The translations under genes and the position numbers were made by a program. Positions 2,890 to 49,107 of a stretch of 53,769 nt of DNA are shown here, piece after piece (position 1 is the first letter of the stretch; each line of letters begins with the position of its first letter). Location: NCBI GenBank assembly GCA_964473525.1, contig CAYYPK010000033.1, positions 1 through 53,769 of the forward strand, in the 5' to 3' direction. Source of the stretch: an uncultured bacterium (GTDB taxonomy: Bacteria > Poribacteria > WGA-4E > GCA-2687025). Below the pieces are notes generated by a model. The model searched no databases, was not told where the DNA came from, and saw only the letters and a program-made list of their open reading frames with translations.

Positions 2890-3662
2890 CGCCTGAGGTC
2901 GCCCCACGCGACCGTCAACTTGCCCCGCGAATCAACGGGAAGGCCGCCCAAGGCGGCCTGTAGGCCGTTTTCCGCGATGGCCAGGATGTCCTCTTCGGCG
3001 AGCGCGACGTTGAAGATCCCTACGTCGTCGATGATGCCGACGAAGAAGGAGCCGCCGCCCCAGCGACCAATCTCAACCGCTCCGCCCGCGGCGCCGATCT
3101 TCCCAGGCCGCGTGCTCTGTCCGGCGAGGATGCCGTTGACATAGACCTTCAGGTGGTCGACATCGCCCTTCGGTTCCTGCTCGTAGGTCGCGGCGAAGTG
3201 GATCCACTCGTCCAGGTTCGGGACGGTCGCGCTCGCGCGCGGCTCCCACGCGCCGCCTGGCTTCACGAACGCCGACATCTTGTTCCCCTCGCCGGGGGGA
3301 TCTATCCGCAGCAGGTACTCGTCGTTCTTCGCAATGAGCTGCCGCCAGTCCCCGATGTCCTCGGCGAAGAACCACGCCATCATCGAAAGCTGCTCGGTCG
3401 CTTGTAGCTCAGGTTGGTCCGCGATACTCACCCACGACGCGCCGTCGAACTGCAGCGCGGCGCCGAACTTGCCCACGGCCCAGTCGGGTCCGTTCAACTC
3501 GCCATCGAAGCCGCGGCCCGAGGAATCGGCCGCCGTGTCGCCGCCGTCCTCGTCCAGGAGCCACACGCCGACAGCGGTGGTTGGATCGATGTCGGCCCGG
3601 GCCGTCGCAGCCAGCGCGCCGATGCATACCGAGAGAGTCGCCGCGATCACCAGTCTACCCAT
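2886..3662 (-). CDS. Secreted LamG/concanavalin-A-like domain protein
   Basis: Signal peptide MGRLVIAATLSVCIGALAATARA. AGGAGA RBS 7 nt upstream. Beta-sandwich laminin-G-like features (W/F-rich, VYVNG...IGRWGGG). Lies 43 nt downstream of the metH stop. Its stop overlaps the convergent methyltransferase stop by 4 nt. Confidence 0.55.
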   Translation of the reverse strand: MGRLVIAATLSVCIGALAATARADIDPTTAVGVWLLDEDGGDTAADSSGRGFDGELNGPDWAVGKFGAALQFDGASWVSIADQPELQATEQLSMMAWFFAEDIGDWRQLIAKNDEYLLRIDPPGEGNKMSAFVKPGGAWEPRASATVPNLDEWIHFAATYEQEPKGDVDHLKVYVNGILAGQSTRPGKIGAAGGAVEIGRWGGGSFFVGIIDDVGIFNVALAEEDILAIAENGLQAALGGLPVDSRGKLTVAWGDLRR

Positions 3663-23083: not shown

Positions 23084-24811
23084 CTACAGCACGGCAATGC
23101 TCTGCTCGAAACGGAAGCCGTAGCGTGTCACGGTCGTGGCGCCGTCGTCAGCAGTGGCGCCGTCGAGTAGCAGCCGCAGCACGGTGGCGTCCTCGAGCGG
23201 CGAGCCAGCCGCGAGCCGGCCGTCGGCGGCCGTGACGTCGCGCCGCGCGTCCTCCCAGGCGGTCAGCTCCGCCGATGTCCACCACTCCATCCCTCTGTCC
23301 CGCGCGTAATTCGCCAGGTCGTGGAACGAGTCAGCGACCCCCTCCTTGGCTATGTGCGCGGGGTGGTAGAGGAAGTGCGCGACGCCGTACCGCTGTCGCG
23401 CGGCGTCCGTCAGCACCTGCGCAAACGCCGCCGGCGCCGTGATGACGAGATCCTGCGTCATCAGGGGCAGGCAGTACGCGTCGATGAAGCGCGGCGTCGA
23501 CCCGTGCGTGTCGAGGGGCTTCCAGAGGTGGCACGAGCCGAACGGGAAGCCGATCGTGCCTGTCTTGCTCGGCCCCTTCGATTGGTCCACGCGTATGCCT
23601 TCGTCGACGCACCAGTCGAAGAACTCGAGACGGCCCTCCCACCTCGTGTAGTGGTTCTTGTTGCTGATGATCTCGTCGCGCCCCGTCATGTCTCGCAGCC
23701 AGGCGGCCTGCGCCGAGAAGTTCTCCTTCCCCCATGCGCGCACGCCGCGACCCTCGAGGGCGTCGTAGTGCAGGGCGACCTCGGAGCCATCGTCACGGAC
23801 GCGCCGGTAGAAGGCTGGGGCATAACCGCCCGGGTAGAGCATGCACCACGTCGTGCGCACGTCCGCGTCGAGGCAAACCTGATGGAGCTTGTCCGCGACG
23901 ACCGGATCGTTCCCATCGGAGTCGTGCGATATGTGCCCGACGGCGGGCAGACCGCGCGGCCAGTACCAGAGCATCGTCAGTGGCACGCGCGACAACGACG
24001 CCAGGTTCAGGACCGAGCCCAGCAGCAACTCCCGCAGGCTGTCTGCGACCGGATCGCGGAAGATCGGGAATGAGTGCAGCGCGTCAGGAGGCCCTACGTC
24101 CGCTGGCGCCGACGCGCCGCCGCCCCACGAGCCCGGGAACAGCCCACGCGGTACGCGCGCGTCCTGCCGGTCTCGCTCCCAGTCGAGGACGAGACCGTCT
24201 TCGGCCTTGAGGATGCCGTCGTCGAGCGGCGCGGTGCCGTCCGGGGCGGGCGCGCCGTCTTCGCGCACGGGGTCTGCCTGCTGGATGTGCGCGACCGCCG
24301 AGACGATGTCCGGGCCGATGAGCCCGGCGTGACCGCCCACGTGTCTGCTCCACGTGACTGCCGATCTGCCGTGGAGCGTGGCGATCTCGTCGGCGCTGCG
24401 CGCCGCCACCGTGATTCCTCCGTAGACATGCAGTGGGCCAGACGCGGTCGCCATCGCGGGGTGCGACGACACCGTCGGCTCGATCCATCCAGGCCCGCAG
24501 TCATGCGGGGACATGACGCCCAGGAGGTCTTCCAGTCCACCTGTGGTCCCAACGCAGAGGACGGCTTCGCCTCTCGCCACGTGTCGAGCGACGGCGTCTC
24601 GCCACGCGGTCGACAGCGTGCCGCCGCAGACAAGCACGATGGGCAGGAGGGCGGATGGCGGGCCAGCGCCGTCAGCGACGACGTGGAAGATGCCCGCGTG
24701 CGTGAGGATCTCCTCGATGTACCGCGCCGTCGGTGGGCTGCCAGCTCCGTACAGAACAGACACGTGCGGCGGCCCGGAAGCAACCTCGGGCTGTGGAGCG
24801 GCGTCATTCAT
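23084..24811 (-). CDS. Two-domain protein: N-terminal class-I glutamine-amidotransferase-like/ThuA-like domain plus C-terminal putative polysaccharide-deacetylase (NodB-like) domain
   Basis: Internal ATG (MNDAAPQ...) overlaps the upstream stop by 8 nt (ATGAATGA). HISHDSDGND...LHYD...FLYHPAHI resemble divergent CE4 motifs. The first 87 codons of the supplied ORF are out-of-frame overlap and are discounted. Confidence 0.45.
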   Translation of the reverse strand: MNDAAPQPEVASGPPHVSVLYGAGSPPTARYIEEILTHAGIFHVVADGAGPPSALLPIVLVCGGTLSTAWRDAVARHVARGEAVLCVGTTGGLEDLLGVMSPHDCGPGWIEPTVSSHPAMATASGPLHVYGGITVAARSADEIATLHGRSAVTWSRHVGGHAGLIGPDIVSAVAHIQQADPVREDGAPAPDGTAPLDDGILKAEDGLVLDWERDRQDARVPRGLFPGSWGGGASAPADVGPPDALHSFPIFRDPVADSLRELLLGSVLNLASLSRVPLTMLWYWPRGLPAVGHISHDSDGNDPVVADKLHQVCLDADVRTTWCMLYPGGYAPAFYRRVRDDGSEVALHYDALEGRGVRAWGKENFSAQAAWLRDMTGRDEIISNKNHYTRWEGRLEFFDWCVDEGIRVDQSKGPSKTGTIGFPFGSCHLWKPLDTHGSTPRFIDAYCLPLMTQDLVITAPAAFAQVLTDAARQRYGVAHFLYHPAHIAKEGVADSFHDLANYARDRGMEWWTSAELTAWEDARRDVTAADGRLAAGSPLEDATVLRLLLDGATADDGATTVTRYGFRFEQSIAVL

Positions 24812-26201
24812 CGGTGAGCGCCTCCTGGGCGTGCAACATGGTGGGGATGTCCGTCGGCAGCTCGCCCCGCTTGCGGAACATCGCGAGGCACACGTCCCAT
24901 ACGGCGGGGTCGTACGCCGTGAGCTCGGCCCACCGGCGCAGCGTGAAGTACGTGTCGCCTTCGTCCGTGTCGACCCGGTCGCCGACGTTGGGGGCGGTCG
25001 TTGAGCCGTTCCACATGACGTCCAGCAGCGTGCGGGCCACGCGCATCGCGTCCTCGGCGTCGAAGACGACACCCCGATGGGCGCCCTCGACCACGAAACC
25101 CACGTTGATGGCGGCGTGGCTGGAGTCCTCAGGCCCGCTCGAGCCGCCTTCCCAGTCCCAGTAGTTCCACTCGTATGCGTCGCCCACCCGGCGTAGGTTC
25201 GCCTGGAAGTTGGTCGCCATCCGTTCCGCCCGGCCGCGCAGCCCGAGCGACGGCAGGTACTTATGCAGCGCCATGTACGCCTGCGCGTGCATCGCGTATT
25301 GGTTGTGGGGCAGGACGCGCCCGGGAGTGCGTTCCGCGGGCGAGTCGGTGGCGGCGTACGCGCCTCGGCCGGGCGCCGTGTCGACCCAGCAGACGTCCCA
25401 CTTCGGGACGAAGTTGTCCTCGATGAGCGACAGGTATCGCTCGGCGGCGGCGCGCGTCTCGGCGTCGTCGCCCTCCATGGCCACCTCGATGAACAGGGCC
25501 AGCGGGTACAGCAGCATACCCTCGTGGATGAGGTACTCCAGCGGCGCGACGGCTGTCGTCTCGACGGCGTACACGTCGCCCGCGGCGGGGCGCCGCGTTG
25601 TCGTGATCTTCACCCCCGGCACGCCGGGAACGGCGTCGCCGTCCAATGTGTGGTTCGCCCGTTCGCCCGTCGCGACGTTCTCGACGGTGTACGCGCCATC
25701 TCCCGCGAAGTCCAGCCGGTACGCGGCGCCGGTGACTTCGTGGGCCGCCGCGATGTCCGCGATCCGCGTCTGCACGTCCAGGTCGCCGCCGTGAGGCTCA
25801 GTTAGCCGGGCGTGGGCGACTGAGTACCTATCGGTCTGCCACCCGGCGTAACCGTCGCGGTCGTGATCAGACATACACGCGAAGACAGCTTCGGCGTGCT
25901 CGCGCACCTTGGCGAGCCACGCGCGGTCGCCCGTGACGCGCCACAGATACATGTAGTCGGCCAAGACGTAGCTTTCACCCCAGCCCAACTGAGCGGCGTC
26001 GGCGCTGTCGGAATAGCCCTTGCCGTCGTTCCTCTCGGCGTCGAAGACGCGGTACCGCTCGACGTACTCGTCCACGGGCAATCGGTCGGGCGACGTTGCG
26101 TGGGATGCGCTGATGGACACGGCGATGAGCGTTCCTATCGTTAGCCGGCGCCACGCGCGCCGACGACCAGGCTGGCGGCCAGCGACACGGTCACTCTCCA
26201 T
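24804..26201 (-). CDS. Exported hypothetical protein, possibly an (alpha/alpha)-toroid polysaccharide-lyase-like enzyme
   Basis: Start MESDRV... followed by a TM/signal segment LTIGTLIAVSISASHA. NQYAMHAQAYMALHKY is reminiscent of the N-H-Y catalytic cluster of PL5/PL17 lyases. The call is weak. Overlaps the upstream stop by 11 nt. Confidence 0.4.
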   Translation of the reverse strand: MESDRVAGRQPGRRRAWRRLTIGTLIAVSISASHATSPDRLPVDEYVERYRVFDAERNDGKGYSDSADAAQLGWGESYVLADYMYLWRVTGDRAWLAKVREHAEAVFACMSDHDRDGYAGWQTDRYSVAHARLTEPHGGDLDVQTRIADIAAAHEVTGAAYRLDFAGDGAYTVENVATGERANHTLDGDAVPGVPGVKITTTRRPAAGDVYAVETTAVAPLEYLIHEGMLLYPLALFIEVAMEGDDAETRAAAERYLSLIEDNFVPKWDVCWVDTAPGRGAYAATDSPAERTPGRVLPHNQYAMHAQAYMALHKYLPSLGLRGRAERMATNFQANLRRVGDAYEWNYWDWEGGSSGPEDSSHAAINVGFVVEGAHRGVVFDAEDAMRVARTLLDVMWNGSTTAPNVGDRVDTDEGDTYFTLRRWAELTAYDPAVWDVCLAMFRKRGELPTDIPTMLHAQEALTDE

Positions 26202-28833
26202 CGTCTGTCTCGGCGAACGACTCTCCCGCGGGGATGTCCAGGCGACGGGCGCCGGCCCGGAGGTACTCCCCGTGCCAGGCGGCGGCGTGCTCGACGGAGC
26301 CGTCGGACGCGTAACGCACGAATCCCAGACGCGCCGCCATCTCAATGTCCACTTCGGGAACCGTCGCCGCGACGGGCTCGGCGTTGCCGTCCCACGCCCG
26401 AGCGTCCGCGTCGAGGGCCACTACGACGTCGCGACGGCCGTCGTCGAGCGTGACCTCCAGGGCAACGTCGGCGCTCGCCGGGGCGGCTCCGTTGCGAGGC
26501 GCGATGGTCAGCCGGCGCGCGGCCACGACCCGCGGCGTGTCTATGTACGGCTCGAGGACGCCGACGAACGCGCTGCTAAGGTCGGCGCCCCCGCGTCGCA
26601 CGAGCAGACGTGGTACCCACACCTCGTCGACGCCCCAATTCGACCCACTGAGCGCCACCCAGCCCTCGGCCGTGAGAGCCTCGGCGTCCTCCGTCAGACC
26701 CGTGTACCTCAGGCAGGGAGCGGCATCGCCGGCCAGCAGCTCGTACCGGTCCTCAACTTGGAACGTGGCGCGCCACGCGTCGGCTGGGTCGCGGTCGACC
26801 CGATACTCCCGCATCTGCCACGTCGCGTCCATGTCTTCGGCTGGGCCTAGGTCCAGGCCGCTCGTCGTCACCTCCGCGAAGTGACTGTTGAGGGCGTACA
26901 GGTGCTCCGATCCGCCGGCTACGCGGAAGATGTCCACGACGTAGGAGGACGAGTCGTCCACGTCAACCAGCAGCGCCGTGCGGTCGTACCGCGTGCCGTT
27001 GACGAGCTCGGGACAGGCCGCGCGCAGTCCGCGCACGACCCGACCCTCGGCCCAGAGGAGCGTGGTGCCTGAGGCCGGCTTCTGGTTCTCCCCGTCGACG
27101 ACTACGGTGTTGTGCGCCGCCGTGGCCTTGTACCAGTTGGCGCGCTCGGAGTACCAACCGCCGTACTGCACGGGCGGATACCCTAGCTCCGGTAGCAGGT
27201 CCAGACCGTGCGCGAAGAGGCCGAGGTTCATTCCGTCCGCGTGGCCGTGTCTGCCGCCGGCTTGATAGTGCATCCACAGCGCGCGACGCTGCGTACCCCT
27301 ACCCGACCGGACGATGCCTAGGCCCCACTCCTCCTTGTTGACGCTGCCTGGTGGGGTCGCGCGTGCCGCGGCCTCCGTGACGCCAGCGCGCATGCCCGCG
27401 AGATCCGGCACGAACCAGTCGTCCGGGATGGCCGCCGCGTCTCCTCCCGCCCCATCCAGCATTGCGCGGGCGAACATCGCATCTCCGGTGATGCCGTGCA
27501 GGCGCCAGAACAGGGTGTACGCCGAGGGTGTCAGGCCTGGCTGTGAGGGGAAGGACGCTCCGGCGTACCTGCCGTAGGGCCGGGCGAAGCCGCCGCAGTC
27601 GCCGACCATCGGGTAGTAGGCGTCGAGGCACCGCGTGTCGTAGTGGAACCGGTACATGTCGTGCAGCCGCGGATGGCGCGCGACCAGCTCGTCGAGGTAC
27701 GTGTCCTCGAGCATGGACACAAGCGACAGGATGTCGGCGACGCCCGTCGGCCCGATGACGGAGTAGCCGCTCAGTCCCTTTTCGCCCGTGACCCCATCCA
27801 CCGCGGTCGCGTCGGCAATGAGGTCGTCGAGCATCTCCGTCACTCGGTGGCGCGATTCCGGCCACCTCAGCGTGGCTTCGGCGGCGATCTGCGTCATCTC
27901 TTCGCGCGGGTAGTTCGTCTGTAGCTTCTTGTGGTCGCCCAGTGAATCCCCGACGATGCGCGTCTCGATGTTCGCCTGGATGTCGGCGAGGCCCGCCTTG
28001 CCCCGTGGCACGTCGATGCTGGAGGCCTTCGCCGCAAGGAACGTCACTGCGTCGGAGTCGGGGGCCAACCCCTCGTAGATTCGGTCGTAGCCCAGGATGA
28101 GCTGGCGGGTCTCCTCGCAGGCGTCGTGCCACACGGACACGTACCCTCGGTGCCCCGCCGTCTCGTACACCAGGCCCTGTGACGCGTAGTCGTAGTCGGG
28201 GTAGATGTCGGCGACGCGGTCAAGGACCACGAGCGCCCGGTTGGCGTACGCCGGATCCTGAGTGACTACGTACGCGCGGGACAGCGCCTCGACGCCCGCG
28301 ACAACGAGTTGCTTCCAGTGTCCGTAGATGAGGTAAGCGCCGATGAAGCGCCACGTCTTGTCGCCGTCGCGGTAGCCCTCGCCGTCGTCCACGCCGAAAC
28401 CCCGGAGCGAGTCGTCGGGCTCTGGATGCTCGACGTTGTAGAGTGTCGCCCTGTCTGCGAGCGATGCGTCGAAGATGCCCGCCCCGTCCAGGCCTGACTC
28501 GTAGTAGCTCGCGAAGTCGTTCTTTGGGAACGTCTCGTCGCACCTCGGGCAGGCGAGAGACCACGGGCGATTCACGGCGTCTATCCGCCAGTCATACATA
28601 GTGACGGACTGCTCGCACGCCGGGCAGTGGCCGTCCGACCACACCATCCACGACCGCGTCATCGTCGGCCCCACGACCATGTCCCACAGCTCGTCGTACG
28701 TGCGGGCCATCCACGGCTCGGCGGCTGCTACGAAACCATCGGCCGCTGCGGCGAGCGTAGGCGACGCGTCGGTAGCGGCGCGCATCCTGTCCAGCGTCGA
28801 GGTCGGATAGAACGCGCTACGTGTCTTCGCCAT
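26191..28833 (-). CDS. Heparinase II/III-like family protein (alpha-toroid plus beta-sandwich), cytoplasmic, with an N-terminal CxxC...CxxC zinc-ribbon-like segment
   Basis: C-terminal HGHADGMNLGLFAHG...LLPELGYPP...WYKATAAHNTVVVDG matches the Hepar_II_III pattern. No signal peptide. The sequence includes GHCPACEQ...CPRCDETF. Confidence 0.6.
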   Translation of the reverse strand: MAKTRSAFYPTSTLDRMRAATDASPTLAAAADGFVAAAEPWMARTYDELWDMVVGPTMTRSWMVWSDGHCPACEQSVTMYDWRIDAVNRPWSLACPRCDETFPKNDFASYYESGLDGAGIFDASLADRATLYNVEHPEPDDSLRGFGVDDGEGYRDGDKTWRFIGAYLIYGHWKQLVVAGVEALSRAYVVTQDPAYANRALVVLDRVADIYPDYDYASQGLVYETAGHRGYVSVWHDACEETRQLILGYDRIYEGLAPDSDAVTFLAAKASSIDVPRGKAGLADIQANIETRIVGDSLGDHKKLQTNYPREEMTQIAAEATLRWPESRHRVTEMLDDLIADATAVDGVTGEKGLSGYSVIGPTGVADILSLVSMLEDTYLDELVARHPRLHDMYRFHYDTRCLDAYYPMVGDCGGFARPYGRYAGASFPSQPGLTPSAYTLFWRLHGITGDAMFARAMLDGAGGDAAAIPDDWFVPDLAGMRAGVTEAAARATPPGSVNKEEWGLGIVRSGRGTQRRALWMHYQAGGRHGHADGMNLGLFAHGLDLLPELGYPPVQYGGWYSERANWYKATAAHNTVVVDGENQKPASGTTLLWAEGRVVRGLRAACPELVNGTRYDRTALLVDVDDSSSYVVDIFRVAGGSEHLYALNSHFAEVTTSGLDLGPAEDMDATWQMREYRVDRDPADAWRATFQVEDRYELLAGDAAPCLRYTGLTEDAEALTAEGWVALSGSNWGVDEVWVPRLLVRRGGADLSSAFVGVLEPYIDTPRVVAARRLTIAPRNGAAPASADVALEVTLDDGRRDVVVALDADARAWDGNAEPVAATVPEVDIEMAARLGFVRYASDGSVEHAAAWHGEYLRAGARRLDIPAGESFAETDDGE

Positions 28834-29604: not shown

Positions 29605-30789
29605 TCAGTCGCGCCAGTGTGACGAGCCCTCGGGAGCCGCGTAGGCGATGGCCAACTCCGGCGTTTCGAGCCGCGCGCCGCCCTCGTGCAGGCTGTCCAC
29701 CGCGAACGCCGTCTGACCCGTCGTCAGCAGCGTGCGCTCAACGGGGTACGTGGCGACACCCGTGTGGAACATCTGCTCGATGTTGTACACGAGTGGGCTG
29801 AAGAAGCTCGCCAGACTCGCGCGCCGCGGGGGCATGGGCAGGTACATCTGCGTCGACGTCACGGCCCCGTCGCCCAGCCGCGCGGAGAAGTTGAAGTCCT
29901 CGAGGAAGCCACTCAGCAGGAACATGCTCGCTTTGAGACCGTCGCCGTATTCCATCAAGTACACGACCGGGTCGCTGACATGCGCGCGCGCGGTGTCCAG
30001 GTCCACGCGGAAGTCGCCGTCGTCCTCGGACTTCGGCTTGCGCGTGTGGCTGCGCGACACGGCTGCCCAGAACAACTCGGGGTCTACGCGCCCGTCGGAG
30101 AGCGTGTCCCACGCCGCATCCCCGCGTAGCGCCTGGATGCTCGATACGCCGACTTCGCCGTCGCCGCGCCGCTCCACCATGCACTGGATCGTCTCCAGTC
30201 CGTGGAAGTCGTAGCTGTCCACACCTCCGTAGCACGCGCAGACCGCCTCGCGGACGTCGGCTCCTAGCGGCAACTCGAGGTCGGGGACGCGCCATGTCAC
30301 GGGCAGAGACGAGCCAGCCATGAACGCGAAGCCGAGCTCGCGAGACACGTCGTACATCTCGACCGCCTGCCCCCAGTCGTACGAGAGGTGCTTGTCGTTG
30401 AAGACTGGGGCGGAACGCCCGCTGTCCCGGAACACGTCGGCGATCTGCGTGAAGAACTCGTACCGCGGGTACTTCCGCTGTCCCTTTTCGGTGCTTGGGT
30501 ATAAGCCGTGCTCGCCGACGAGCAGGACGCCGTCCACGGCCAGCTTCTCGCCACCCAGCGTTAGCGCTTCGGCGATGGTTGGGTAAAGTGGGACGCCGAA
30601 CCGTTCGCACCGCTCCTCGCCGAAGTCGTTCTCGCCGATCTGGTCAATGAACATCGACGCCAGCTCGAACGGTGGCATGTGGTGCCGGCCCTGCCAGCCG
30701 TAGCCCTCGAGGAATCGGTCCACGATGTGTTGGGCGTGCGAGTACTTGTGGTAGATCGTGTTGATCGCGGCGATCTTCTTGCGACCCAT
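29605..30789 (-). CDS. Conserved hypothetical protein (394 aa), first gene of the glycan-enzyme operon
   Basis: Codon usage is coherent and the gene is tightly spaced (19 nt) to the creatininase gene. No motif I can name. Confidence 0.5.
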   Translation of the reverse strand: MGRKKIAAINTIYHKYSHAQHIVDRFLEGYGWQGRHHMPPFELASMFIDQIGENDFGEERCERFGVPLYPTIAEALTLGGEKLAVDGVLLVGEHGLYPSTEKGQRKYPRYEFFTQIADVFRDSGRSAPVFNDKHLSYDWGQAVEMYDVSRELGFAFMAGSSLPVTWRVPDLELPLGADVREAVCACYGGVDSYDFHGLETIQCMVERRGDGEVGVSSIQALRGDAAWDTLSDGRVDPELFWAAVSRSHTRKPKSEDDGDFRVDLDTARAHVSDPVVYLMEYGDGLKASMFLLSGFLEDFNFSARLGDGAVTSTQMYLPMPPRRASLASFFSPLVYNIEQMFHTGVATYPVERTLLTTGQTAFAVDSLHEGGARLETPELAIAYAAPEGSSHWRD

Positions 30790-34357: not shown

Positions 34358-36158
34358 CTATCGCACCTCGACGATCGCTTCGCGGATGGGGCCTAGCGGG
34401 CGCCCGTGGTACGTGATGTCCGCAGTAACGACATGGCGCCGAGGGGCAGCGTCGGCTGGCGCGGTGACCCGAAACGGCACGGCTCCTTCGGACTTCGCCG
34501 GGATCGTCGCGCGCGCCGCGCTGGGAGCGCCCCACCCGTCGGGCGTGCGCAGCTGGACACGGACGTCGCGCGCTTCGGCCGAGTGGTTCGTCACGCGCGC
34601 CTGCACCGTGATGACATCCCCGGGCCGGGCGCTCTGCTCGTACGGGTCACACCGGATCCAGTGCGCATCGAGGGCGTAGTTCGGATGCTCCCACGCCGAC
34701 AGCTCGCCGAAGGTACGCTCCCGCTCCGCCAGGTTGGCGCGCATCTGGGCCAGTTGGGCGTCCGTGAAGGTGAACGCGCGGTCGACGTGGCAGTTGAAGA
34801 TGTGCGTGGGCGCCAACTCCTGCAACAGGGCGACACACCGGTCGTACCCGACGCCGCTTCCCAGCAGGTTGCGGTTGTTGGCGCAGTAGTCGTCCATCCC
34901 TCCGGGCGTGAAGGAGTCACCCGAGAAGAACAGGCGCGTTCCGTGACCCTCCACGAGCAGCCCACCGTGGTAGTACGTCTGCCCGGGGAAGTGGTACGCG
35001 GTCATGCGGAATTCGTTCCAGATCCACGACTCGCCATCGCCCGTGATGCGGTCGACGCGCGGCCGCCGGTGAGATGCACGGGATGCGGTGCGCCTCCGGG
35101 CGAGTGACGACGTCGGCTACGACGCCGTCCGCGCGCGTGACGCAGTCGTACGTCGCCTGGAACGCGGGAATCTCGTCGACGTGGTCGTCGTGGTAGTGCG
35201 TGATCCAGAAGCCCGTGACGTCGACGATCTCGCTCGCCTCCCGCATCTCGGCCAACGCCTCCAGGACGCGCGGGGCGCCGCAGTCCATGACGTACGCCTC
35301 GCCCGAGTCAGAGACGACAATCCAACTCGTCCCAACGTGACGCAGGAAGGTCGGCGGATCAATGCCCTCGCGTATCGGCATGTGGTCCTCGCGGCCCTCG
35401 AACTGCGTGAACAGGCGCGGGAAGTAGAAGCGCAACGCCGCGACGGCGGCGTACTGGTCGTAGCAGGCGTCCAGGCGTTCGAGCAGCCTGGAAATGGCGT
35501 CGGCCGGGTCGCGGATGATGTCCCCGTGAGACGGCACGATGATGTCTGGCTGGGCGTCACGCAGGCGGTTGAGACTGGCGGCCAACTCGTGTCGGGCTCC
35601 GAGGAAGCCGTGGTAGTCCGTGAGCCCGTCCTCGCCCTTCTGAAGGCTGTAGATGTCCCACAGGCGACCACCGTCGTACATCACGTCGCCCACGAAGGCC
35701 ACCCGCGTGTCGCCGTCCTGGACGAGGTACGACATGCTGCCGTTCGTGTGACCCGGCGTGTGGAGCGCGGTGACAGCCATGCCGCACCAGTCGAACGTGT
35801 CGCCGTCCTGGATACCGGCGCCGACGGTGACGCTTTCCGCCATGACGGGTGGGAACGGGTGGTCGTCGTACAGATGCCACCGCCGCTTTTCGTCGGCCCA
35901 ATGCGCCTCGACGCCGTCGAAGAGGCCGCGCTCAGTAGCGGGAACGTGGAGCTCGGCTCCGCTGGCGACGGCGTCCGCGAGACCGACCGCCTGATCGCGG
36001 TGGTAGTGCGTCATGGCCACGCGCGCGATGCCCGCCGCTCCCACGGCGGCCGGAACGTCGGCGCAGCAGTCCACCAGCGTGGCGCCTTGATCTGACTGGA
36101 GAACGCCCACGTTGATGTGCGCTACGTGGACGGCAATGCGTGGCGTGAGTTGTTCCAT
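34358..36158 (-). pseudogene. Tandem metallo-beta-lactamase-fold hydrolase with a beta-sandwich tail, interrupted by a frameshift (ORFs 34917..36158 and 34358..35005)
   Basis: The first MBL domain is complete (HYHRDQ, HTPGHT, GDVMYDGG, SHGD). The second begins with ITHYHDDHVDEIP in ORF 34917..36158. Its later motifs (H in AYHFPGQT, D in FFSGDSF, H in NCHVD) continue in a different frame in ORF 34358..35005, so a frame change must lie near 35000-35080. Confidence 0.5.
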
Positions 36159-42870: not shown

Positions 42871-44331
42871 ATGATCCGCCGGATCATCCTCCGCAACTTC
42901 ATGTCGCATGTCGAAACCGTCATCGAGCCCGCCGACGGTCTGACGGTCATCGTTGGCCCCAACAACTCCGGCAAGAGCGCCATCGTCGAGGCGTTGCGCA
43001 CCCTATGCACCAACGAGAACAGCACGCACGTCATGCGCCACGGCGCGCGGGAGTGCGCCGTCATCGTCGAGACCGACGACGGTCACGTCATCGAGTGGGC
43101 GAGGAAGAAGTCGCCAGCCTACACCGTGGACGACCAGCGGTTCGACCGCATGAGCCGCGGTCGAAGCGGCGTGCCCGCTGAGCTGCACGCGGCCCTTCGG
43201 TTGCCGTGGGTCGCCGGCAGCGGGGATGAGAAGTTCGATGTCCACCTCGGCGAGCAGAAGTCGCCGATATTTCTGCTTGGGTCCGCATCCGACGCCGCGA
43301 AGTTCTTCGCCTCGTCGTCGGACGCCACGAAGCTCCTCGCGATGCAGGGGCGCCACAAGGCGAAGGTCACGCAGGCGCGCGCGCGCAAGCGCGAGCTGGA
43401 CGCCCTTGCCAGCAAGCAGTCGGCGCGGATGGCGGAACTAGACGTCGTTCCTGGCCTGGCGCGCCGGATGGAGGCCGCAGAGGCGGCCTATGGCTCCATC
43501 GTGGCGTCGTCGGACGCGATCAGCAGGCTGGAGTCGGCGATCGGCGCCATACACGCCGCGCGGACGCTGGCCGGGGAACTAGGGGACCTGGCGCGGGCGC
43601 TCGCGCCGCTGGACGCGCCTCCCGTTCTCGATGACACGCAGCTGCTTGCCCACGTGACGACACAGGTCGCGCTGGCTGACGAGGAGTGCGCCGCCGCTGA
43701 CGCGCAGGCGAAGGCGGCAGCTCCGCTGTTAGACCCCCCTGAGCAGCAGCCTGCCACGCAGTTGGCGAAGCACATCGACGACCTTGCCGCGTCCTCAGCG
43801 GCCGCCCAACTTCGTGCGGCGGAAGCCGGCGCGCTCGACGAGGTCGCCTCGCCGCCCCCGCTGGAAGACGCGCAACGGTTGGTTGCCGACATTCGGGCGA
43901 CGCGCGTGGCGCTCGTGCAAGTGGCGACTTGCGAAGTGGAGGGGCGGGCGCTCGACGAGATTGCCGGGCCGCCCGAACTCGCCGACACGGTCACACTGAG
44001 TCGCGACGTGGCGGGCCTGACTGCTGCGCATGCGGCGACGACGACAGCTTCGGCGCGCCACGCACTGCTCGGCGCCCTCTTGGAGACGCCCGCCACGGAC
44101 GACACGCGAGCCGTCACCGAGATGCTCGCGGAGCTGCGCGACGCGACTGCGGCCGCTGCGGCCAACGAGCGTGATCTGGGCGAGGCGAAGGCGGAAGGGC
44201 GCGACGTCGCCGACGCGATCCGCAGGTGGGCGGAAGACAGCGTGACATGTCCCACCTGCGGGGCGGCTCTCGACGCGGAGGCCGTTGCCCAGCACGTCGC
44301 TGGCGCTCACGAGGAGCGGGGCCGTGGCTGA
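42871..44331 (+). CDS. Rad50/SbcC-type ABC ATPase N-lobe plus ascending coiled coil, ending in a CxxC zinc-hook motif (split SMC-like protein, part 1)
   Basis: MIRRIILRNFMSHVETVIEP...IVGPNNSGKSAIVEAL (Walker A), then about 330 aa of Ala/Leu/Glu-rich coiled coil, then ...VTCPTCGAALD 25 residues before the stop. No signature motif or Walker B is present in this ORF. Confidence 0.7.
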   Translation: MIRRIILRNFMSHVETVIEPADGLTVIVGPNNSGKSAIVEALRTLCTNENSTHVMRHGARECAVIVETDDGHVIEWARKKSPAYTVDDQRFDRMSRGRSGVPAELHAALRLPWVAGSGDEKFDVHLGEQKSPIFLLGSASDAAKFFASSSDATKLLAMQGRHKAKVTQARARKRELDALASKQSARMAELDVVPGLARRMEAAEAAYGSIVASSDAISRLESAIGAIHAARTLAGELGDLARALAPLDAPPVLDDTQLLAHVTTQVALADEECAAADAQAKAAAPLLDPPEQQPATQLAKHIDDLAASSAAAQLRAAEAGALDEVASPPPLEDAQRLVADIRATRVALVQVATCEVEGRALDEIAGPPELADTVTLSRDVAGLTAAHAATTTASARHALLGALLETPATDDTRAVTEMLAELRDATAAAAANERDLGEAKAEGRDVADAIRRWAEDSVTCPTCGAALDAEAVAQHVAGAHEERGRG

Positions 44332-45280
44332 TTCCGGCTACCAGGGCCTTCTCATCATCGGCGATCCCCACCTGGAAGGCCGTGTTCCCGGATTCCGCAA
44401 GGATGACTATCCCACGGTTCTACTGGCGAAGCTCGAGTGGTGTCTCGACTACGCCGCGACGCACCAACTGCTGCCGGCGATCCTTGGGGATCTGTTCCAC
44501 ATGCCGCGCGACAACCCCACGTGGATGCTCGCCGCCCTCATGGACATCCTTGACCGCGAGGTGGTGGGCATTTACGGGAACCACGATACGGCGGACCCGG
44601 CCCTCAACGAGAACGACTCGTTGACGCTGCTGGAGCGCGCGGGACGCCTGAGGCTCCTCACGCCTGATGAGCCCTGGCGTGGGGTGATGGGCGGCCGCGC
44701 GGTTGTGGTCGGAGGCTCGTCCTACCGCGTCGCGATCCCTAGCAGTTTCGATGTCGAGGTAGACGCTGACCCGCCGCCGTTCGTCGTGTGGTTGACGCAC
44801 CACGACATTGGCGTACCCGGGTACGATGGCGGCCGCATATCGCCCAAGGAGTTGCCGGGCATTGACGTCGTCGTGAACGGGCACATCCATCGCAGCCTCG
44901 ATACCGTCACGACGGGATGCACGCGGTGGATCACGCCGGGGAACATCTCACGCAGGACGCGCACCGAGGCGACCGAGGAGCACGTCCCGGCGGCGCTGCG
45001 CGTCGATATCGGACGCGACACCGTGGGATTCGAGCGGCCGGTCGTCCCGCACGCGACGTTTACCGATGTCTTCCACGACGCGGTGGCCGAGGCCGCTGTG
45101 GGAGGCACGGAGCAGTCGTCGTCATTCGTGGCCGGCCTCGGCGACATGCTCGCGCGCAAGACGGAGGGCGGCGCGGGCCTCCTGGAGTTCATCCGTCGCA
45201 ATGTCGGCGGATTCGAGGAAGAGGTAGCACGCGAGATTCTCACCCTAGCCGAAGAGGTGACAGACGGTGGCGAGCAATGA
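44324..45280 (+). CDS. Calcineurin-like metallophosphoesterase (Mre11/SbcD-like nuclease)
   Basis: GTG start overlapping the upstream stop (GTGGCTGA). All five phosphoesterase motifs are present: IIGDPHL, GDLFH, GNHD, THHD and GHIHR. Confidence 0.7.
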   Translation: MADSGYQGLLIIGDPHLEGRVPGFRKDDYPTVLLAKLEWCLDYAATHQLLPAILGDLFHMPRDNPTWMLAALMDILDREVVGIYGNHDTADPALNENDSLTLLERAGRLRLLTPDEPWRGVMGGRAVVVGGSSYRVAIPSSFDVEVDADPPPFVVWLTHHDIGVPGYDGGRISPKELPGIDVVVNGHIHRSLDTVTTGCTRWITPGNISRRTRTEATEEHVPAALRVDIGRDTVGFERPVVPHATFTDVFHDAVAEAAVGGTEQSSSFVAGLGDMLARKTEGGAGLLEFIRRNVGGFEEEVAREILTLAEEVTDGGEQ

Positions 45281-45608
45281 ACCGACGGCCGGCGACGCGC
45301 AGACGATCGAGGAGTTGCGCGGCCGCTATGAGAAGCTGAACACGCGGCGCATTCAGGTCCAGGAGCGGCTGGATACCGCGCGACAGCGGCTCTCGGATCT
45401 ACAGAAGCAGGCGCGGGAGAGCTACGGCACGGACGATGTCGCCGAGCTGCAGACCAAGCTCGATGAGATGAAGAGCGAAAACCTGCGCAAACGCGCGGAA
45501 TACCAGGCATCGCTCGACGCCATCGAGGCCGGCCTCGCCAAGGTCGAGGACGAGGCCGCGACTGCCAGCGTCGCGCCGCCCGCCTCGGGCAATGGGGATG
45601 ACGCGTGA
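45267..45608 (+). CDS. Coiled-coil protein, probable descending arm of the split Rad50-like ATPase
   Basis: GTG start overlapping the upstream gene by 14 nt. 113 aa with heptad-like ELRGRYEKLNTRRIQVQERLDTARQRLSDLQKQARE... and a low-complexity tail. Confidence 0.5.
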   Translation: MASNEPTAGDAQTIEELRGRYEKLNTRRIQVQERLDTARQRLSDLQKQARESYGTDDVAELQTKLDEMKSENLRKRAEYQASLDAIEAGLAKVEDEAATASVAPPASGNGDDA

Positions 45609-46291
45609 CGGTGGGCGCGCCGGAGACCACGCCGATCCCGACGCCCGCCGCCACACGGGGGCGAGTCGACCGTCTCGCATGGGAGCGCGACACCCTCGTG
45701 GCGCAGTCGGCCACCACAGCCGAGGAACTGGGTGAGGTCGAGCGCCAGCTTGCCGTCGCCACCAAGGTGACGGACGCGCTGAAGCAGCTCAGCAACACGC
45801 TCTTCCAGCAGACGCTCGAAGTCGTCGAGGAGCAGCTGACCACGGCTCTCCAGGAAATCCTCGAGCAACCGATCCAACTGCGCGCGAATCCCCGATTCCT
45901 CAACAACGCCGCGGCCGTCGACTTCTACATCGAGCGCGACGGCAACCGCGAGCACGTGCTGCGCGGACAGGGCGGCTCCGTGGCGAACGTGCTCTCGGTC
46001 GGCCTACGCATGTTCGCCCTGACAACCCTGGACGAAGCCGAGCACCGGCGGTTCCTCGTGCTCGATGAGCAGGACTGCTGGCTCAAGCCCAACCTCGTCC
46101 CACGCCTTGTCAAGATGGTCCACGATGCTGGCAAGGCGCTGGGGTTCCAGGTTCTGATGATCTCCCACCACGATCCCGAGCCCTTCCAGCGGTACGCCGA
46201 TCGCATGTATCGTCTCGTGCCGCGCGGCGAGGACGGTGTGTCCGTTGAGCGGTTGGACATCTCTCCTGACTCTGTAGATCCCGTGCTGTAG
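45605..46291 (+). CDS. ABC ATPase C-lobe (signature-like motif, Walker B, H-loop) of the split Rad50/SbcC-like protein
   Basis: GTG start overlapping the upstream stop (GTGA). A coiled-coil segment precedes RGQGGSVANVLSVGLRMFAL (signature/Q-like), RRFLVLDEQD (Walker B plus D-loop) and VLMISHHDPE (H-loop). Confidence 0.7.
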   Translation: MTVGAPETTPIPTPAATRGRVDRLAWERDTLVAQSATTAEELGEVERQLAVATKVTDALKQLSNTLFQQTLEVVEEQLTTALQEILEQPIQLRANPRFLNNAAAVDFYIERDGNREHVLRGQGGSVANVLSVGLRMFALTTLDEAEHRRFLVLDEQDCWLKPNLVPRLVKMVHDAGKALGFQVLMISHHDPEPFQRYADRMYRLVPRGEDGVSVERLDISPDSVDPVL

Positions 46292-46431
46292 GGGCGCCGC
46301 CTCGCCATCCACAGAGAAGTGTGGGGTCGGCGCGAGGCCATCCAGCCCGGTGGATGACCGAAATGACCCCAGAAAGGTGGCGGATCGCCGGCCGCGGCGC
46401 CGTCTATACATGTGAAGCCCGGGGGCCGGCG

Positions 46432-49107
46432 ATGGAACACCTACCGGACGACATCCTCGTGAGGCGCGTGCTCGCGGGAGACCAGGAAGCGTTCCGCCCC
46501 CTGGTGGAACGGTACGACCGCACTGTGCACGCCGCCATCTACATCGTGCTTGTCGGCCGCGCGATGCCGGAGGAGATGGCGGAGCTCAGCGGCGACGCGT
46601 TCGAGGCCGCATACCGTGGCCTGCGGGGCCTACAGCGGCGCGAGCGGTTCGGGCCGTGGATCTACCGCATCGCGCGCCGCAAGGCGATCGACTTCACTCG
46701 TCGGGGCCGTCAGCAGGTCGACCACGTGTCCTCGGACCACATGGAGGCGGAGACAGGGCTCGCCCTCGCAGACGCGCGACCCACGGGCCAGGACACCTGG
46801 GAGCGGGACAGCGACCGGCGCCGGATCGTGGAAGCCGCCCTCGCCTCGCTGCCGGAAGAGTTGCGCGTGCCTGCGGTCCTGCGGTACATGCGTGGCTTGG
46901 CCGTGAGGACGATCAGCGAGATCCTGGGCATCCCCATTAGGACGGTGGAACGGCGCGTGTCTCACGCGCGCGAGCGCTTGCGCGCGTACTTTGAGGCGCG
47001 AGGACTCACGAACGAGGTGAAGGCGCTCCAGAGGTGCGCGCTGCCTATCGCGGCCGGGGGAGATGTCGTCGCGCGGACGATGGCCGCTGTACAGGAGGCC
47101 GGTCCACACCAGCGCTCGGAGATTGGGATCAAGACGGCGGGGGCGCCCGCCACGGTCGTGGCGGCCGGTTCGTCGCTTGTGGCGGCGGCCGTGCTCGCGC
47201 TGTCCCTCGTCGTGACGGCGCAGCACGGCGCCGTGCAGCCGCGGCGCGGCGAGGAAGAGCTGCTCGTATCACTCGTGCCGCCAGCAGCCACGAGCGTCCC
47301 AAGGCCCCCCGGGCTCGCGCGGCCCGCGGGCGTGAGAGCGTTCGTCGAGACCGGCGACACGCTCGGGACGTGGCGGCCCGTGGCGCCCACGCTAGACGGC
47401 GCTCCGCCGGTAGCGGACGGCGACCTGCTATGGGGGAGGGACACCGGCTTCCACGTCGCGAACGAGGAAGGCGTGTACCTCGATACAGGACGGCTCTACG
47501 GGACGGTGACGCTAGACGCGCTTGTGGACATACCGACGTTCGGCGGCGCGCACGCGTCGATCGGCCTCGTCATTGACGGCCAGCACCGCGGCGTTGTAAA
47601 CCCCTCCGGCGGCAAGCAGCTCCGCGTCGACGTCGCCAGACACCGCGATGGCATGTGGGCGCACGTCAACCCGGACTGGCCGGCCTTTGCCTCCCCGAAC
47701 TACGACGGGTGGGCGCGCGACAGATCGCAGGCGTGGGTGGGTATCGCTGAGGCCAGCGCGCGCCCTACCCACGTGCGGCTCGTGCACCGCACCGACCTGG
47801 GCGCCTACGACATCTACATCGACGGTGTGCTGTCGGCGTCGTCAGTGCGGACGCCGGCGACGCGTGGGTTGCCCGTCACTGGGGCCGCGTTTGCCTCATG
47901 CGCCCGTGAGATTCCCGCGCCGATGCGGGTGCTGGGCCTGGAACTATGGGTGGACGGCCCCGACCTCGCGCCCCGCCGGCCAGACTACGTCGTCCGTGAC
48001 CCTGTAATGACGGATCCGGCAGCTGTCGCCACCCGTGTGCAGCAGAGGGTGGCGAACGGCGACCTCCGCGAGGCAAAGGATCTACTCCTGATGCTGAGGA
48101 TGCTCCGGGGACCCAGAGACGCCGTCGAACGCGCCGAAGAGCTCGTCCTCGCCCTCGAGCGCCGGCACGAGGCCGCCGTCCCGGCGATTGAGGCGAGGCT
48201 CGCGCGGCTGCGCACGGCCGCTGCGGACATCGCGCCCTCCGACACGCCGCTCGCTCCCGTGCCTGCGGCTACCCGCTATCTGCGTTGGGTCTGGCGTAAC
48301 TCAGACGTACAGTGGGCGCACTTCGACGTCGATTGGGAGGGCCAGGGCCACCCGCGTGTGCTTGTGGCCCTTCCCCGGGGAGACTACGTGGACGGGATCC
48401 ACCGGTTCGTATTCACTAGCCTGCTCGCCGAGTCTTACCGGCGACTCACGGGCCAGAACGGGGCGTTGACGGTGTCGTTGCGAGCCCCCGCGGACCTGCA
48501 GCACGAGGCGCTGGCCAACAACTGGCACGGTGACAGGCCCGAGGGCGGCCGGCCTGTTCGTGACGGGGTCGATGCCCTGCTGACCGTGGTCGAGGACGCC
48601 GTCGCCTTCGGCGCTCTGGCGGGCGCGCTCCCCAAGGCGGAGCAGTTGGCGTCGCGGCACGACGGTGGCGAGCAGGCAGAAGCCGCGCGTCGGCTGGTGG
48701 CGCCTTTCAGGCGAACGTGGGACAGGGATCTGGCGGCGGCCGACGTCTGGTGTCGAGGCATTGCTCGCGGCCTCGACGACCTCAGGAGTGGGTACCCCTC
48801 GCCCCACGGTTCTCTGAACGGTTGGCTGACGGCGTGCGTGCCCGACGCGAGCGTGCGTGAGGGCGCGGACGGCGAAGCGTACGTGACCCTCCCATCACCC
48901 ATGCACTACAGCACGGCGCGCCTCATGCGCCTGTCACGCGATCTCGCCGAGGTCAGCGCCCTTCTCGACGGTGGTCGGCGTGCGACCGACGTGTTCCTGT
49001 GCGTTCCCAACCAGCCACAGCACGTGGTTGGCTTCGCCAGGCCTCCGGCGCCGCGGGACGGGCAGACCACGACGGACGACCTCGCCGTGGCGGCCGTCGG
49101 CAGGTAG
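46432..49107 (+). CDS. ECF sigma factor fused to a transmembrane helix and a large (~600 aa) C-terminal extracytoplasmic domain (one-polypeptide sigma/anti-sigma-like protein)
   Basis: Internal start MEHLPDDILVRRVLAGDQEAF. Sigma-2 region (FRPLVERYDRTVHAAIYIV) and sigma-4 (LPEELRVPAVLRYMRGLAVRTISEILGIPIRTVERRVSHARERL), then TM segment VVAAGSSLVAAAVLALSLVV, then a long domain of unknown fold. Confidence 0.7.
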   Translation: MEHLPDDILVRRVLAGDQEAFRPLVERYDRTVHAAIYIVLVGRAMPEEMAELSGDAFEAAYRGLRGLQRRERFGPWIYRIARRKAIDFTRRGRQQVDHVSSDHMEAETGLALADARPTGQDTWERDSDRRRIVEAALASLPEELRVPAVLRYMRGLAVRTISEILGIPIRTVERRVSHARERLRAYFEARGLTNEVKALQRCALPIAAGGDVVARTMAAVQEAGPHQRSEIGIKTAGAPATVVAAGSSLVAAAVLALSLVVTAQHGAVQPRRGEEELLVSLVPPAATSVPRPPGLARPAGVRAFVETGDTLGTWRPVAPTLDGAPPVADGDLLWGRDTGFHVANEEGVYLDTGRLYGTVTLDALVDIPTFGGAHASIGLVIDGQHRGVVNPSGGKQLRVDVARHRDGMWAHVNPDWPAFASPNYDGWARDRSQAWVGIAEASARPTHVRLVHRTDLGAYDIYIDGVLSASSVRTPATRGLPVTGAAFASCAREIPAPMRVLGLELWVDGPDLAPRRPDYVVRDPVMTDPAAVATRVQQRVANGDLREAKDLLLMLRMLRGPRDAVERAEELVLALERRHEAAVPAIEARLARLRTAAADIAPSDTPLAPVPAATRYLRWVWRNSDVQWAHFDVDWEGQGHPRVLVALPRGDYVDGIHRFVFTSLLAESYRRLTGQNGALTVSLRAPADLQHEALANNWHGDRPEGGRPVRDGVDALLTVVEDAVAFGALAGALPKAEQLASRHDGGEQAEAARRLVAPFRRTWDRDLAAADVWCRGIARGLDDLRSGYPSPHGSLNGWLTACVPDASVREGADGEAYVTLPSPMHYSTARLMRLSRDLAEVSALLDGGRRATDVFLCVPNQPQHVVGFARPPAPRDGQTTTDDLAVAAVGR

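Follow-up and report, generated by a model that had tools for sequence, protein, structure and literature searches.

Sigma factors that carry their own sensor

Membrane-spanning fusions of an extracytoplasmic function (ECF) sigma factor to a sensory domain have been described for a few extended ECF groups. In ECF52, e.g., SCO4117 of Streptomyces coelicolor, the ECF core is followed by one or more membrane helices, a proline-rich spacer and an extracytoplasmic domain of carbohydrate-binding type, and proteolytic release has been proposed for SCO4117 as well as for ECF48, ECF52 and ECF53 (PMC5826349, PMC8999054). IutY of Pseudomonas putida (ECF243) joins a cytosolic ECF sigma factor to a periplasmic domain via one transmembrane (TM) helix, and trimming by Prc followed by RseP cleavage frees the sigma factor (PMC5411451). 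In the Sigma-I/RsgI systems of cellulolytic clostridia, an alternative sigma factor is reported to respond to polysaccharides under the control of a single-pass membrane protein that bears a carbohydrate-binding module outside the cell (PMC6056542, PMC4711584, PMC6582324). Here, we report on a protein encoded at 46432-49107 (+) of a 53,769-nt stretch of DNA from an uncultured bacterium (contig CAYYPK010000033.1), which is called the window throughout. In one chain of 891 amino acids (aa) it unites an ECF core, a TM helix and a C-terminal part with a lectin-like domain and a duplicated module. With moderate confidence, we read it as a one-protein transmembrane signalling device whose sigma domain would be released by regulated proteolysis after ligand binding to the ectodomain. 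The membrane-spanning ECF fusion design as such is known; new are the very rare ectodomain, the lineage and the compactness of the unit.

An initial annotation of this locus, made from the sequence alone, had called the architecture rare and seen only in a few extended ECF groups. The class is better documented than was implied, with release shown by experiment for IutY and predicted for ECF48, ECF52 and ECF53 (PMC8999054, PMC5411451). No shorter route is known by which a cue from outside the cell can determine the choice of promoter than a single-chain sigma/sensor protein. Very few such proteins have been investigated: IutY by experiment, SCO4117 in part. The window protein adds a sensor composition outside Pfam and an apparently new duplicated module, and it comes from what is probably a symbiont lineage, unculturable and hardly studied in its signalling.

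The layout resembles the ECF52-like organisation that the initial annotation had proposed: a single chain, a TM helix and a proline-rich spacer are present, followed by a domain of a putatively carbohydrate-binding type, and no separate anti-sigma gene is adjacent. Membership in ECF52 itself was nevertheless rejected. ECF52 proteins carry a zf-HC2 zinc finger between sigma-4 and the membrane, whereas the window protein shows neither a PF13490 match nor an HxxxCxxC motif, with five Cys in its 891 aa. The module of SCO4117 is of the NPCBM type (PMC5826349), whereas the window protein has a concanavalin-A (ConA)-like jelly roll and two novel modules. Moreover, ECF52 has been reported from Actinobacteria only, whereas the host of the window probably belongs to the Poribacteria. 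Assignment to the IutY type (ECF243) was rejected as well. Sigma factor and outer domain are likewise connected in one chain by one TM helix, but IutY has a FecR-type anti-sigma domain that is signalled by a TonB-dependent receptor; the window protein has no FecR match at E<=10, and neither FecR/DUF4880 nor a TonB-dependent receptor was found among the window open reading frames (ORFs) scanned by Pfam. Sigma-I/RsgI differs in consisting of two proteins and in its sigma factor, which is of the sigma-I family and not an ECF, and no sequence relationship to the window protein was found. The pairs RpoE/RseA and SigW/RsiW share with our protein a distantly similar core and presumably the logic of transmembrane signalling and autoregulated ECF promoters (PMC7826278); unlike in these pairs, sigma factor and membrane sensor reside in one chain and no anti-sigma domain is recognisable. 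ECF01-Gob proteins probably combine a TM helix with a long extension. They stem from the Planctomycetes, a lineage related to the Planctomycetes-Verrucomicrobia-Chlamydiae (PVC) group, and are listed among the ECF groups with C-terminal extensions (PMC4937300).

Domain architecture of the fusion protein

The open reading frame starts with a GTG and comprises 928 codons (46321-49107, +); the ATG at 46432 yields the coding sequence of 891 aa, 46432-49107 (+) including the stop codon. The most informative homologue is P0002, a protein of 889 aa from a 440-kb JGI contig, which in the alignment is 46% identical in the C-terminal part. It is colinear with the window protein from the first to the last residue, spanning the junctions of sigma core, linker, TM helix and C-terminal part, and its locus is syntenic, with genes for Rieske, TPR-SLT, SMC-like ATPase, Metallophos, coiled-coil and 236-aa proteins, the sigma fusion and HflX. 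The GC content at third codon positions (GC3) is 0.82-0.87 for each segment of the frame. Since P0002 is colinear across all junctions within a syntenic locus, a frameshift artefact can be excluded, and 46432-49107 (+) is, as judged from sequence comparison, one polypeptide, as the initial annotation had assumed. A frameshift that would make the sigma factor and the C-terminal part separate genes was looked for and not found.

Several observations concern the start codon. P0002 and P0003 both start at the residue equivalent to 46432, and the preceding 46321-46431 shows no codon periodicity (GC by codon position 0.68/0.73/0.73). In locus L002, the related gene is preceded by 63 nt that share two conserved blocks with the window. 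The spacing of the L002 block to the ATG is off by one base, hence an in-frame TGA arises, and because the block sits in another frame and contains this stop, the upstream conservation is non-coding. This supports the 37 codons upstream of 46432 as non-coding, in line with the earlier proposal that they are untranslated. Public gene calls of the same protein, P0049 (NCBI, 914 aa) and P0001 (ENA), start at MTPERW with the ATG at 46363 and would put translation through the conserved promoter-like element described below; these annotated starts are probably 23 codons too long. In L002, a contig of 1.96 kb, a frameshift at ~1640-1730 interrupts the P0003 gene between lectin domain and module M1, and M1-like sequence goes on in another frame up to the contig end.

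Sigma-70 region 2 is located at 46501-46710 (+; aa 24-93; PF04542, 31.7 bits, cutoff 24) and Sigma-70 region 4 at 46822-46986 (+; aa 131-185; PF04545, 24.5 bits), where Sigma70_r4_2 (PF08281) matches aa 131-183 with 36 bits against a cutoff of 25.7. The sigma70-ECF model TIGR02937 of NCBIfam covers aa 19-185 with 75.5 bits (cutoff 42.9), and many NCBIfam models of ECF equivalogs match aa 5-192 at E 1e-25 to 1e-10. No match to sigma region 1 or region 3 was obtained from Pfam or NCBIfam. With regions 2 and 4 only and the superfamily model above its cutoff, the protein has the make-up of an ECF (group 4) sigma-70 factor, and the two regions recognised in the initial annotation are confirmed. None of the named NCBIfam ECF equivalogs was reached, the best scores being 88.5 against 208 for PRK12518 and 86.3 against 209 for SigW (PRK09641). 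The closest stand-alone ECF sigma factors are SigW/RpoE-like and at most 35% identical to the core. In the family alignment, the clade of the window protein differs from other members by an insertion and a substitution in region 2.

The sigma core is followed by a juxtamembrane linker at 46987-47142 (+; aa 186-237), which is conserved in the family alignment and devoid of a zinc-finger motif. Its family pattern reads RLR.YF.r.Gl.....dllr...L...........vme.v, and ~50 aa separate sigma-4 from the TM helix. The linker has no Pfam match at E<=10. The TM helix itself lies at 47143-47223 (+; aa 238-264, APATVVAAGSSLVAAAVLALSLVVTAQ), is rich in Ala, Gly and Ser, and forms the sole strong hydropathy peak of the protein with a Kyte-Doolittle value of 2.33 over 19 residues. 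The only other stretch above 1.6, aa 715-733 (1.73), has charged residues within and belongs to a helix of the well-predicted module M2. A hydrophobic peak at ~aa 229-275 occurs in 12 further sigma-bearing relatives (13 examined with the window protein), so the single TM helix of the initial annotation holds across the family. The sigma domain has no signal peptide. Because the sigma domain must reach RNA polymerase and only one TM helix is present, the C-terminal part should be extracytoplasmic.

This C-terminal part comprises 627 aa, in agreement with the ~600 aa estimated earlier, and has no Pfam match at E<=10. The initial annotation recognised no motif in it, which is true at the level of Pfam; structure prediction, as recommended there, reveals a ConA-like jelly roll and a duplicated module of ~175 aa. 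The structure is taken from an AlphaFold2 model computed from an 18-sequence alignment; a model from a 2-sequence alignment was poor (predicted local distance difference test, pLDDT, 48.7) and was discarded. Of the 36 residues of the proline-rich spacer (47224-47331, +; aa 265-300), 7 are Pro; the first two-thirds of the spacer are modelled with low confidence (block pLDDT 38 and 38), and values of ~72-81 are reached near the lectin domain. Then follows a concanavalin-A-like lectin/glucanase beta-jelly-roll domain at 47332-47955 (+; aa ~301-508) with the motif G.YDIY.DG. In the model, it forms a two-sheet jelly-roll beta-sandwich that is superimposable on L-type lectins, GH16 or LamG. Laminin_G_3 and related ConA-like Pfam families do not match aa 267-533 at E<=10, and visual inspection of aa 301-508 showed no ExDxxE catalytic motif of the GH16 type. 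By sequence, only an indirect link leads to Laminin_G_3: in P0023, a weak relative, the matching region overlaps with a Laminin_G_3 domain.

Module M1 (48004-48546, +; aa 525-705) is predicted with a pLDDT of ~70-93 and combines a helical hairpin with a long helix and a small alpha/beta subdomain. Module M2 (48547-49104, +; aa 706-891) is its tandem duplicate. Both share the order of two short helices, a long helix, a further helix and a beta-beta-alpha-beta subdomain, and their profiles align by hhalign over 151 columns (probability 95.9%, E 5.9e-9); this alignment and the common order of secondary structure elements establish the duplication. The homology is visible by profile-profile comparison only, BLASTP of M1 against M2 being not significant (E 0.4). 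Neither a Pfam family nor a significant PDB sequence match was found for the module, which on these searches is apparently a previously undescribed, duplicated unit.

A conserved promoter-like element

Directly upstream of the gene, a promoter-like element of the form TGGCGGATCGCC-N11-CGTCTATAC is located at 46378-46409 (+) and conserved in the loci L002 and L086. Its -35-like part TGGCGGATCGCC (46378-46389) is separated by 11 nt from the -10-like part CGTCTATAC (46401-46409), so that TGGCGG and CGTCTA are 17 nt apart. The element is followed by a leader of 22 nt to the ATG, with a Shine-Dalgarno-like GGGGG at 46421-46425. The counterpart in L002 reads TTGGCGGGCCGC...CCGTCTATAC and has AGGA in place of the GGGGG run, and upstream of the distant member P0018 (L086) the 12-mer recurs without change and is followed by CGTCATA, likewise spaced 17 nt from TGGCGG. 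Among 90 fetched loci, the 12-mer occurs in two, L086 and L001, the latter being the same locus as the window. Variants of the -10-like part (of the CGTCT.T.TAC or GGTCTATAC type) are located upstream of three further family genes: GGTCTATAC for P0013, CGTCTGTGTAC for a 509-aa paralogue in L088, and CGTCTATGTAC for P0012, where it lies inside an over-long annotated start. Their distance to the gene is ~10-25 nt, if a corrected internal start is assumed for P0012.

A -10 element of the CGTC type is typical of ECF promoters. ECF genes are, moreover, usually autoregulated (PMC7826278). Because of this habit, its conservation and its CGTC-type -10 part, we regard 46378-46409 as a candidate for the gene's own ECF-type promoter. 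The initial annotation had suggested looking for a cognate motif upstream of neighbouring genes, including the cassette that begins at 42871; the search retrieved only the site of the sigma gene itself, and with <=3 mismatches none was present upstream of the cassette or of the TPR-SLT gene. A scan for sigma-70 promoters and terminators around the gene yielded nothing useful.

Proposed mechanism and alternative explanations

In the mechanism we propose, the sigma domain would be held inactive at the membrane by linker and helix, and the linker might also mask it. The ectodomain of lectin domain, M1 and M2 would bind a ligand, for which the lectin-like fold makes a glycan or glycoconjugate the most plausible candidate. 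Ligand binding would lead to trimming of the ectodomain and then to an intramembrane cut by a site-2 protease; the freed sigma domain could join RNA polymerase and transcribe from ECF-type promoters. Release is proposed here by the precedent of IutY and of ECF48/52/53 and SCO4117. The protein's own promoter TGGCGGATCGCC-N11-CGTCTATAC would be among the targets and thus allow positive autoregulation, which gains support because a CGTC-type -10 element 22 nt upstream of the ATG is common to distant members.

Several points weigh against this picture. An anti-sigma domain or zinc finger is not detectable by Pfam (E<=10) or motif scan, and the linker of ~50 aa is shorter than a canonical anti-sigma domain, for which the class I type is a helical bundle of ~70-90 aa that binds sigma-2 and sigma-4. 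The initial annotation had spoken of sigma and anti-sigma factor in one chain; the single chain stands, while an anti-sigma function can only be assumed. Genes for site-1 or site-2 proteases are absent from the window ORFs scanned, which is a weak argument as they are usually encoded elsewhere. The -35-like part of the promoter rests on three loci only, and the 54-kb window offers no second copy of the motif with <=3 mismatches and no target gene. Sugar binding is predicted from the fold, and ConA-like folds also bind proteins. As to topology, the positive-inside rule is uninformative, with 16 against 15 Lys and Arg flanking the helix across the family. Finally, L001 (ENA ERZ23498963), which is 99.8-99.95% identical to the window over 15 kb, has an in-frame deletion of 54 nt (47147-47200; deletion point at L001 10781-10784) that removes aa 239-256, i.e., 18 of ~27 TM residues. 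The deletion is flanked by a 4-nt GCGC microhomology, and the rest of the gene differs by two single-nucleotide polymorphisms only. The L001 scaffold was built from short reads and includes an N gap, and the helix is intact in P0049 from NCBI. Either a soluble allele exists, or the deletion arose during short-read assembly; an allele that is real and functional would not be membrane-anchored.

The main rival explanation does without release. The tethered sigma factor would stay at the membrane, where the ligand changes its conformation or oligomeric state and RNA polymerase is recruited in a ToxR/CadC-like manner. The architecture would be the same as in the release model, the conserved juxtamembrane linker could pass on a conformational change, and neither a protease gene nor a cleavage motif was identified in the window ORFs scanned. 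We consider signalling of this type unlikely, as IutY, the one single-chain sigma/anti-sigma protein studied by experiment, is released by proteolysis (PMC5411451) and release is also proposed for ECF48/52/53 (PMC8999054). Besides, a sigma factor is buried in the holoenzyme, which would presumably be hard to accommodate sterically at ~50 residues from the membrane.

Second, the hydrophobic segment might not be a membrane helix at all. The protein would then be cytoplasmic, and its C-terminal part would regulate the sigma core as in ECF41/ECF42. The Ala-rich helix is only moderately hydrophobic, L001 lacks 18 residues of it with the reading frame kept, and the distribution of flanking charges gives no guidance. 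Set against this are the Kyte-Doolittle value, which is well above the usual 1.6, and the position of the segment, kept in 13 sigma-bearing members despite low identity. Proline-rich spacers and lectin-type jelly rolls are, in addition, typical of extracytoplasmic proteins, and the deletion, absent from the intact P0049, may stem from the assembly or mark an allele that is defective. A cytoplasmic protein is thus quite improbable.

Very improbable is a third explanation, by which the sigma-like domain has lost any role in transcription and serves as the N-terminal cytoplasmic anchor of a surface lectin or adhesin. Such a loss could go along with the modest Pfam scores of the individual sigma regions (31.7 and 36 bits), the low identity to stand-alone ECF sigma factors (<=35%), and the insertion and substitution in region 2 of the window clade. 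Yet TIGR02937 scores above its cutoff, the ECF equivalog models match aa 5-192, the sigma part is the best-conserved part of the window protein in comparison with P0002 and P0003, and the upstream DNA contains a conserved promoter-like element of the ECF type. Effectively refuted is a fourth explanation, in which faulty assembly or a frameshift has fused a sigma gene with an unrelated gene downstream. The related gene in L002 is frameshifted, but behind the lectin domain rather than where the sigma part ends, and the architecture is uninterrupted in the window, P0049 and L001 from independent assemblies, in the 46%-identical P0002 and in ~10 distant relatives, with uniform GC3 periodicity.

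For the preferred reading, release of a membrane-tethered sigma factor, sigma domain, sensor and candidate promoter lie within ~2.8 kb and are thus testable in a heterologous host; a possible use would be an orthogonal, ligand-gated transcription switch. Poribacteria are sponge symbionts. If the lectin domain binds a glycan of the sponge matrix, this would provide a concrete host-sensing mechanism for them.

The protein family and its distribution

The family is rare. An exhaustive HMMER search with the C-terminal profile against 1.84 billion representative proteins retrieved 26 proteins at E<=1e-3, and it was this search that revealed the family, a word-indexed protein search with the family profile having returned 4 proteins only. 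The full-length relatives are again ECF sigma factors (P0003, P0010-14, P0016, P0018, P0019, P0021 and P0022); their sigma identity was established by Pfam for those scanned and by alignment over the sigma regions for the others. They show the hydrophobic helix at ~aa 229-275 and then a beta-rich domain with G.YDIY.DG, so that nearly all of them are ECF sigma-TM-lectin fusions. A single M1-like copy after the lectin domain is present in P0007, P0008, P0009, P0013 and P0018, and M2-like fragments occur in P0004 and P0006. No C-terminal relatives were found in the GTDB species genomes with the patterns NE[EQ]GVYLD and D[VR]DW[ET]GQG. In JGI metagenome contigs, the alignment of close relatives retrieved no further relatives, and that of the lectin-only subfamily two short loci of little use. 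Among the papers searched, none named Poribacteria, ECF and sigma factor together.

Some members deviate at their C-terminus. P0009 and P0018 (L086 2034-5630) have an extra extension of ~480 aa after M1, in which Asp-box-like motifs, e.g., SDDDGRHWTRV, were seen by eye. A different extra domain of ~200 aa follows the lectin domain in P0014, P0017 and P0021. In L088, two paralogous sigma-TM-lectin fusions of 509 and 523 aa (167-1696 and 4001-5572) alternate with two genes for Mo-binding subunits of aldehyde oxidase/xanthine dehydrogenase.

In four of the five distant family loci, a gene flanking the sigma fusion codes for a large protein with DUF1573/ASH Ig-like, PD40 beta-propeller, cohesin and FlgD_ig domains. 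The PD40-cohesin-FlgD_ig loci are L087 3211-5865 (-), L088 5609-9571 (+), L089 1641-3542 (+), and L090 1117-3876 (+) and 6095-6521 (+). A FlgD_ig protein is also encoded two genes downstream of P0002, and the window gene is without such a neighbour. The PD40-cohesin-FlgD_ig proteins may belong to the regulon of the family or act as its partners. Tentatively, one could go further and propose an undescribed ECF group, with the window protein as founding and best-preserved member, whose sigma factors serve as glycan receptors themselves. By virtue of the lectin domain and M1/M2, a new duplicated signalling fold outside the cytoplasm, they would sense glycans of host or matrix directly and set free the sigma domain, would work without an anti-sigma protein or recognisable anti-sigma domain and would have the PD40-cohesin-FlgD_ig surface proteins in their regulon; we regard this as possible, though rather doubtful in its full extent. 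The hosts of such a group would apparently be uncultured, marine or sponge-associated bacteria.

Neighbourhood and host

The sigma fusion gene begins 140 bp downstream of a four-gene cassette at 42871-46291 (+), and the promoter-like element lies within this gap. The cassette codes for four proteins: one of 486 aa is an SMC/Rad50-like N-terminal ATPase head combined with a long Ala-rich coiled region, one of 331 aa a Metallophos nuclease and one of 113 aa a coiled-coil protein, while the product of 228 aa matches C-terminal ATPase halves of the AAA_15/21 type and has the Walker B motif LVLDE. Its ORFs overlap or abut, and it is conserved on the P0002 contig. The position directly downstream of a split Rad50-like cassette is therefore as described in the initial annotation. 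A functional link between both found no support: the motif is absent upstream of the cassette, and the synteny with P0002 is no argument for it, because it covers housekeeping genes too. A link of cassette or sigma gene to a defence system was rejected, PADLOC giving generic P-loop ATPase matches only for the cassette and none for the sigma protein. No separate anti-sigma gene is adjacent to the sigma fusion.

The window has the character of an ordinary chromosome with MetH, GlnA, XseA, HflX and TrpB-like genes; it contains neither rRNA nor tRNA genes. Its GlnA is 84% and 78% identical to those of two Candidatus Poribacteria metagenome-assembled genomes, the next best matches being at <=69%. 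Judged from GlnA alone, the host is probably poribacterial, and it is probably associated with sponges.

Three ORFs have no Pfam match and a coding-like GC3: 23087-25072 (-; 662 aa), 24807-26345 (-; 513 aa) and 29608-30789 (-; 394 aa). As the first two share ~270 nt, one of these ORFs, or one of their starts, may be wrong. The window also holds glycan-related genes, namely for a 258-aa Laminin_G_3 (ConA-like) protein at 2889-3662 (-), an 880-aa protein with a heparinase II/III C-terminal domain at 26194-28833 (-), and a protein with an NPCBM-associated NEW3 domain at 34361-35005 (-).

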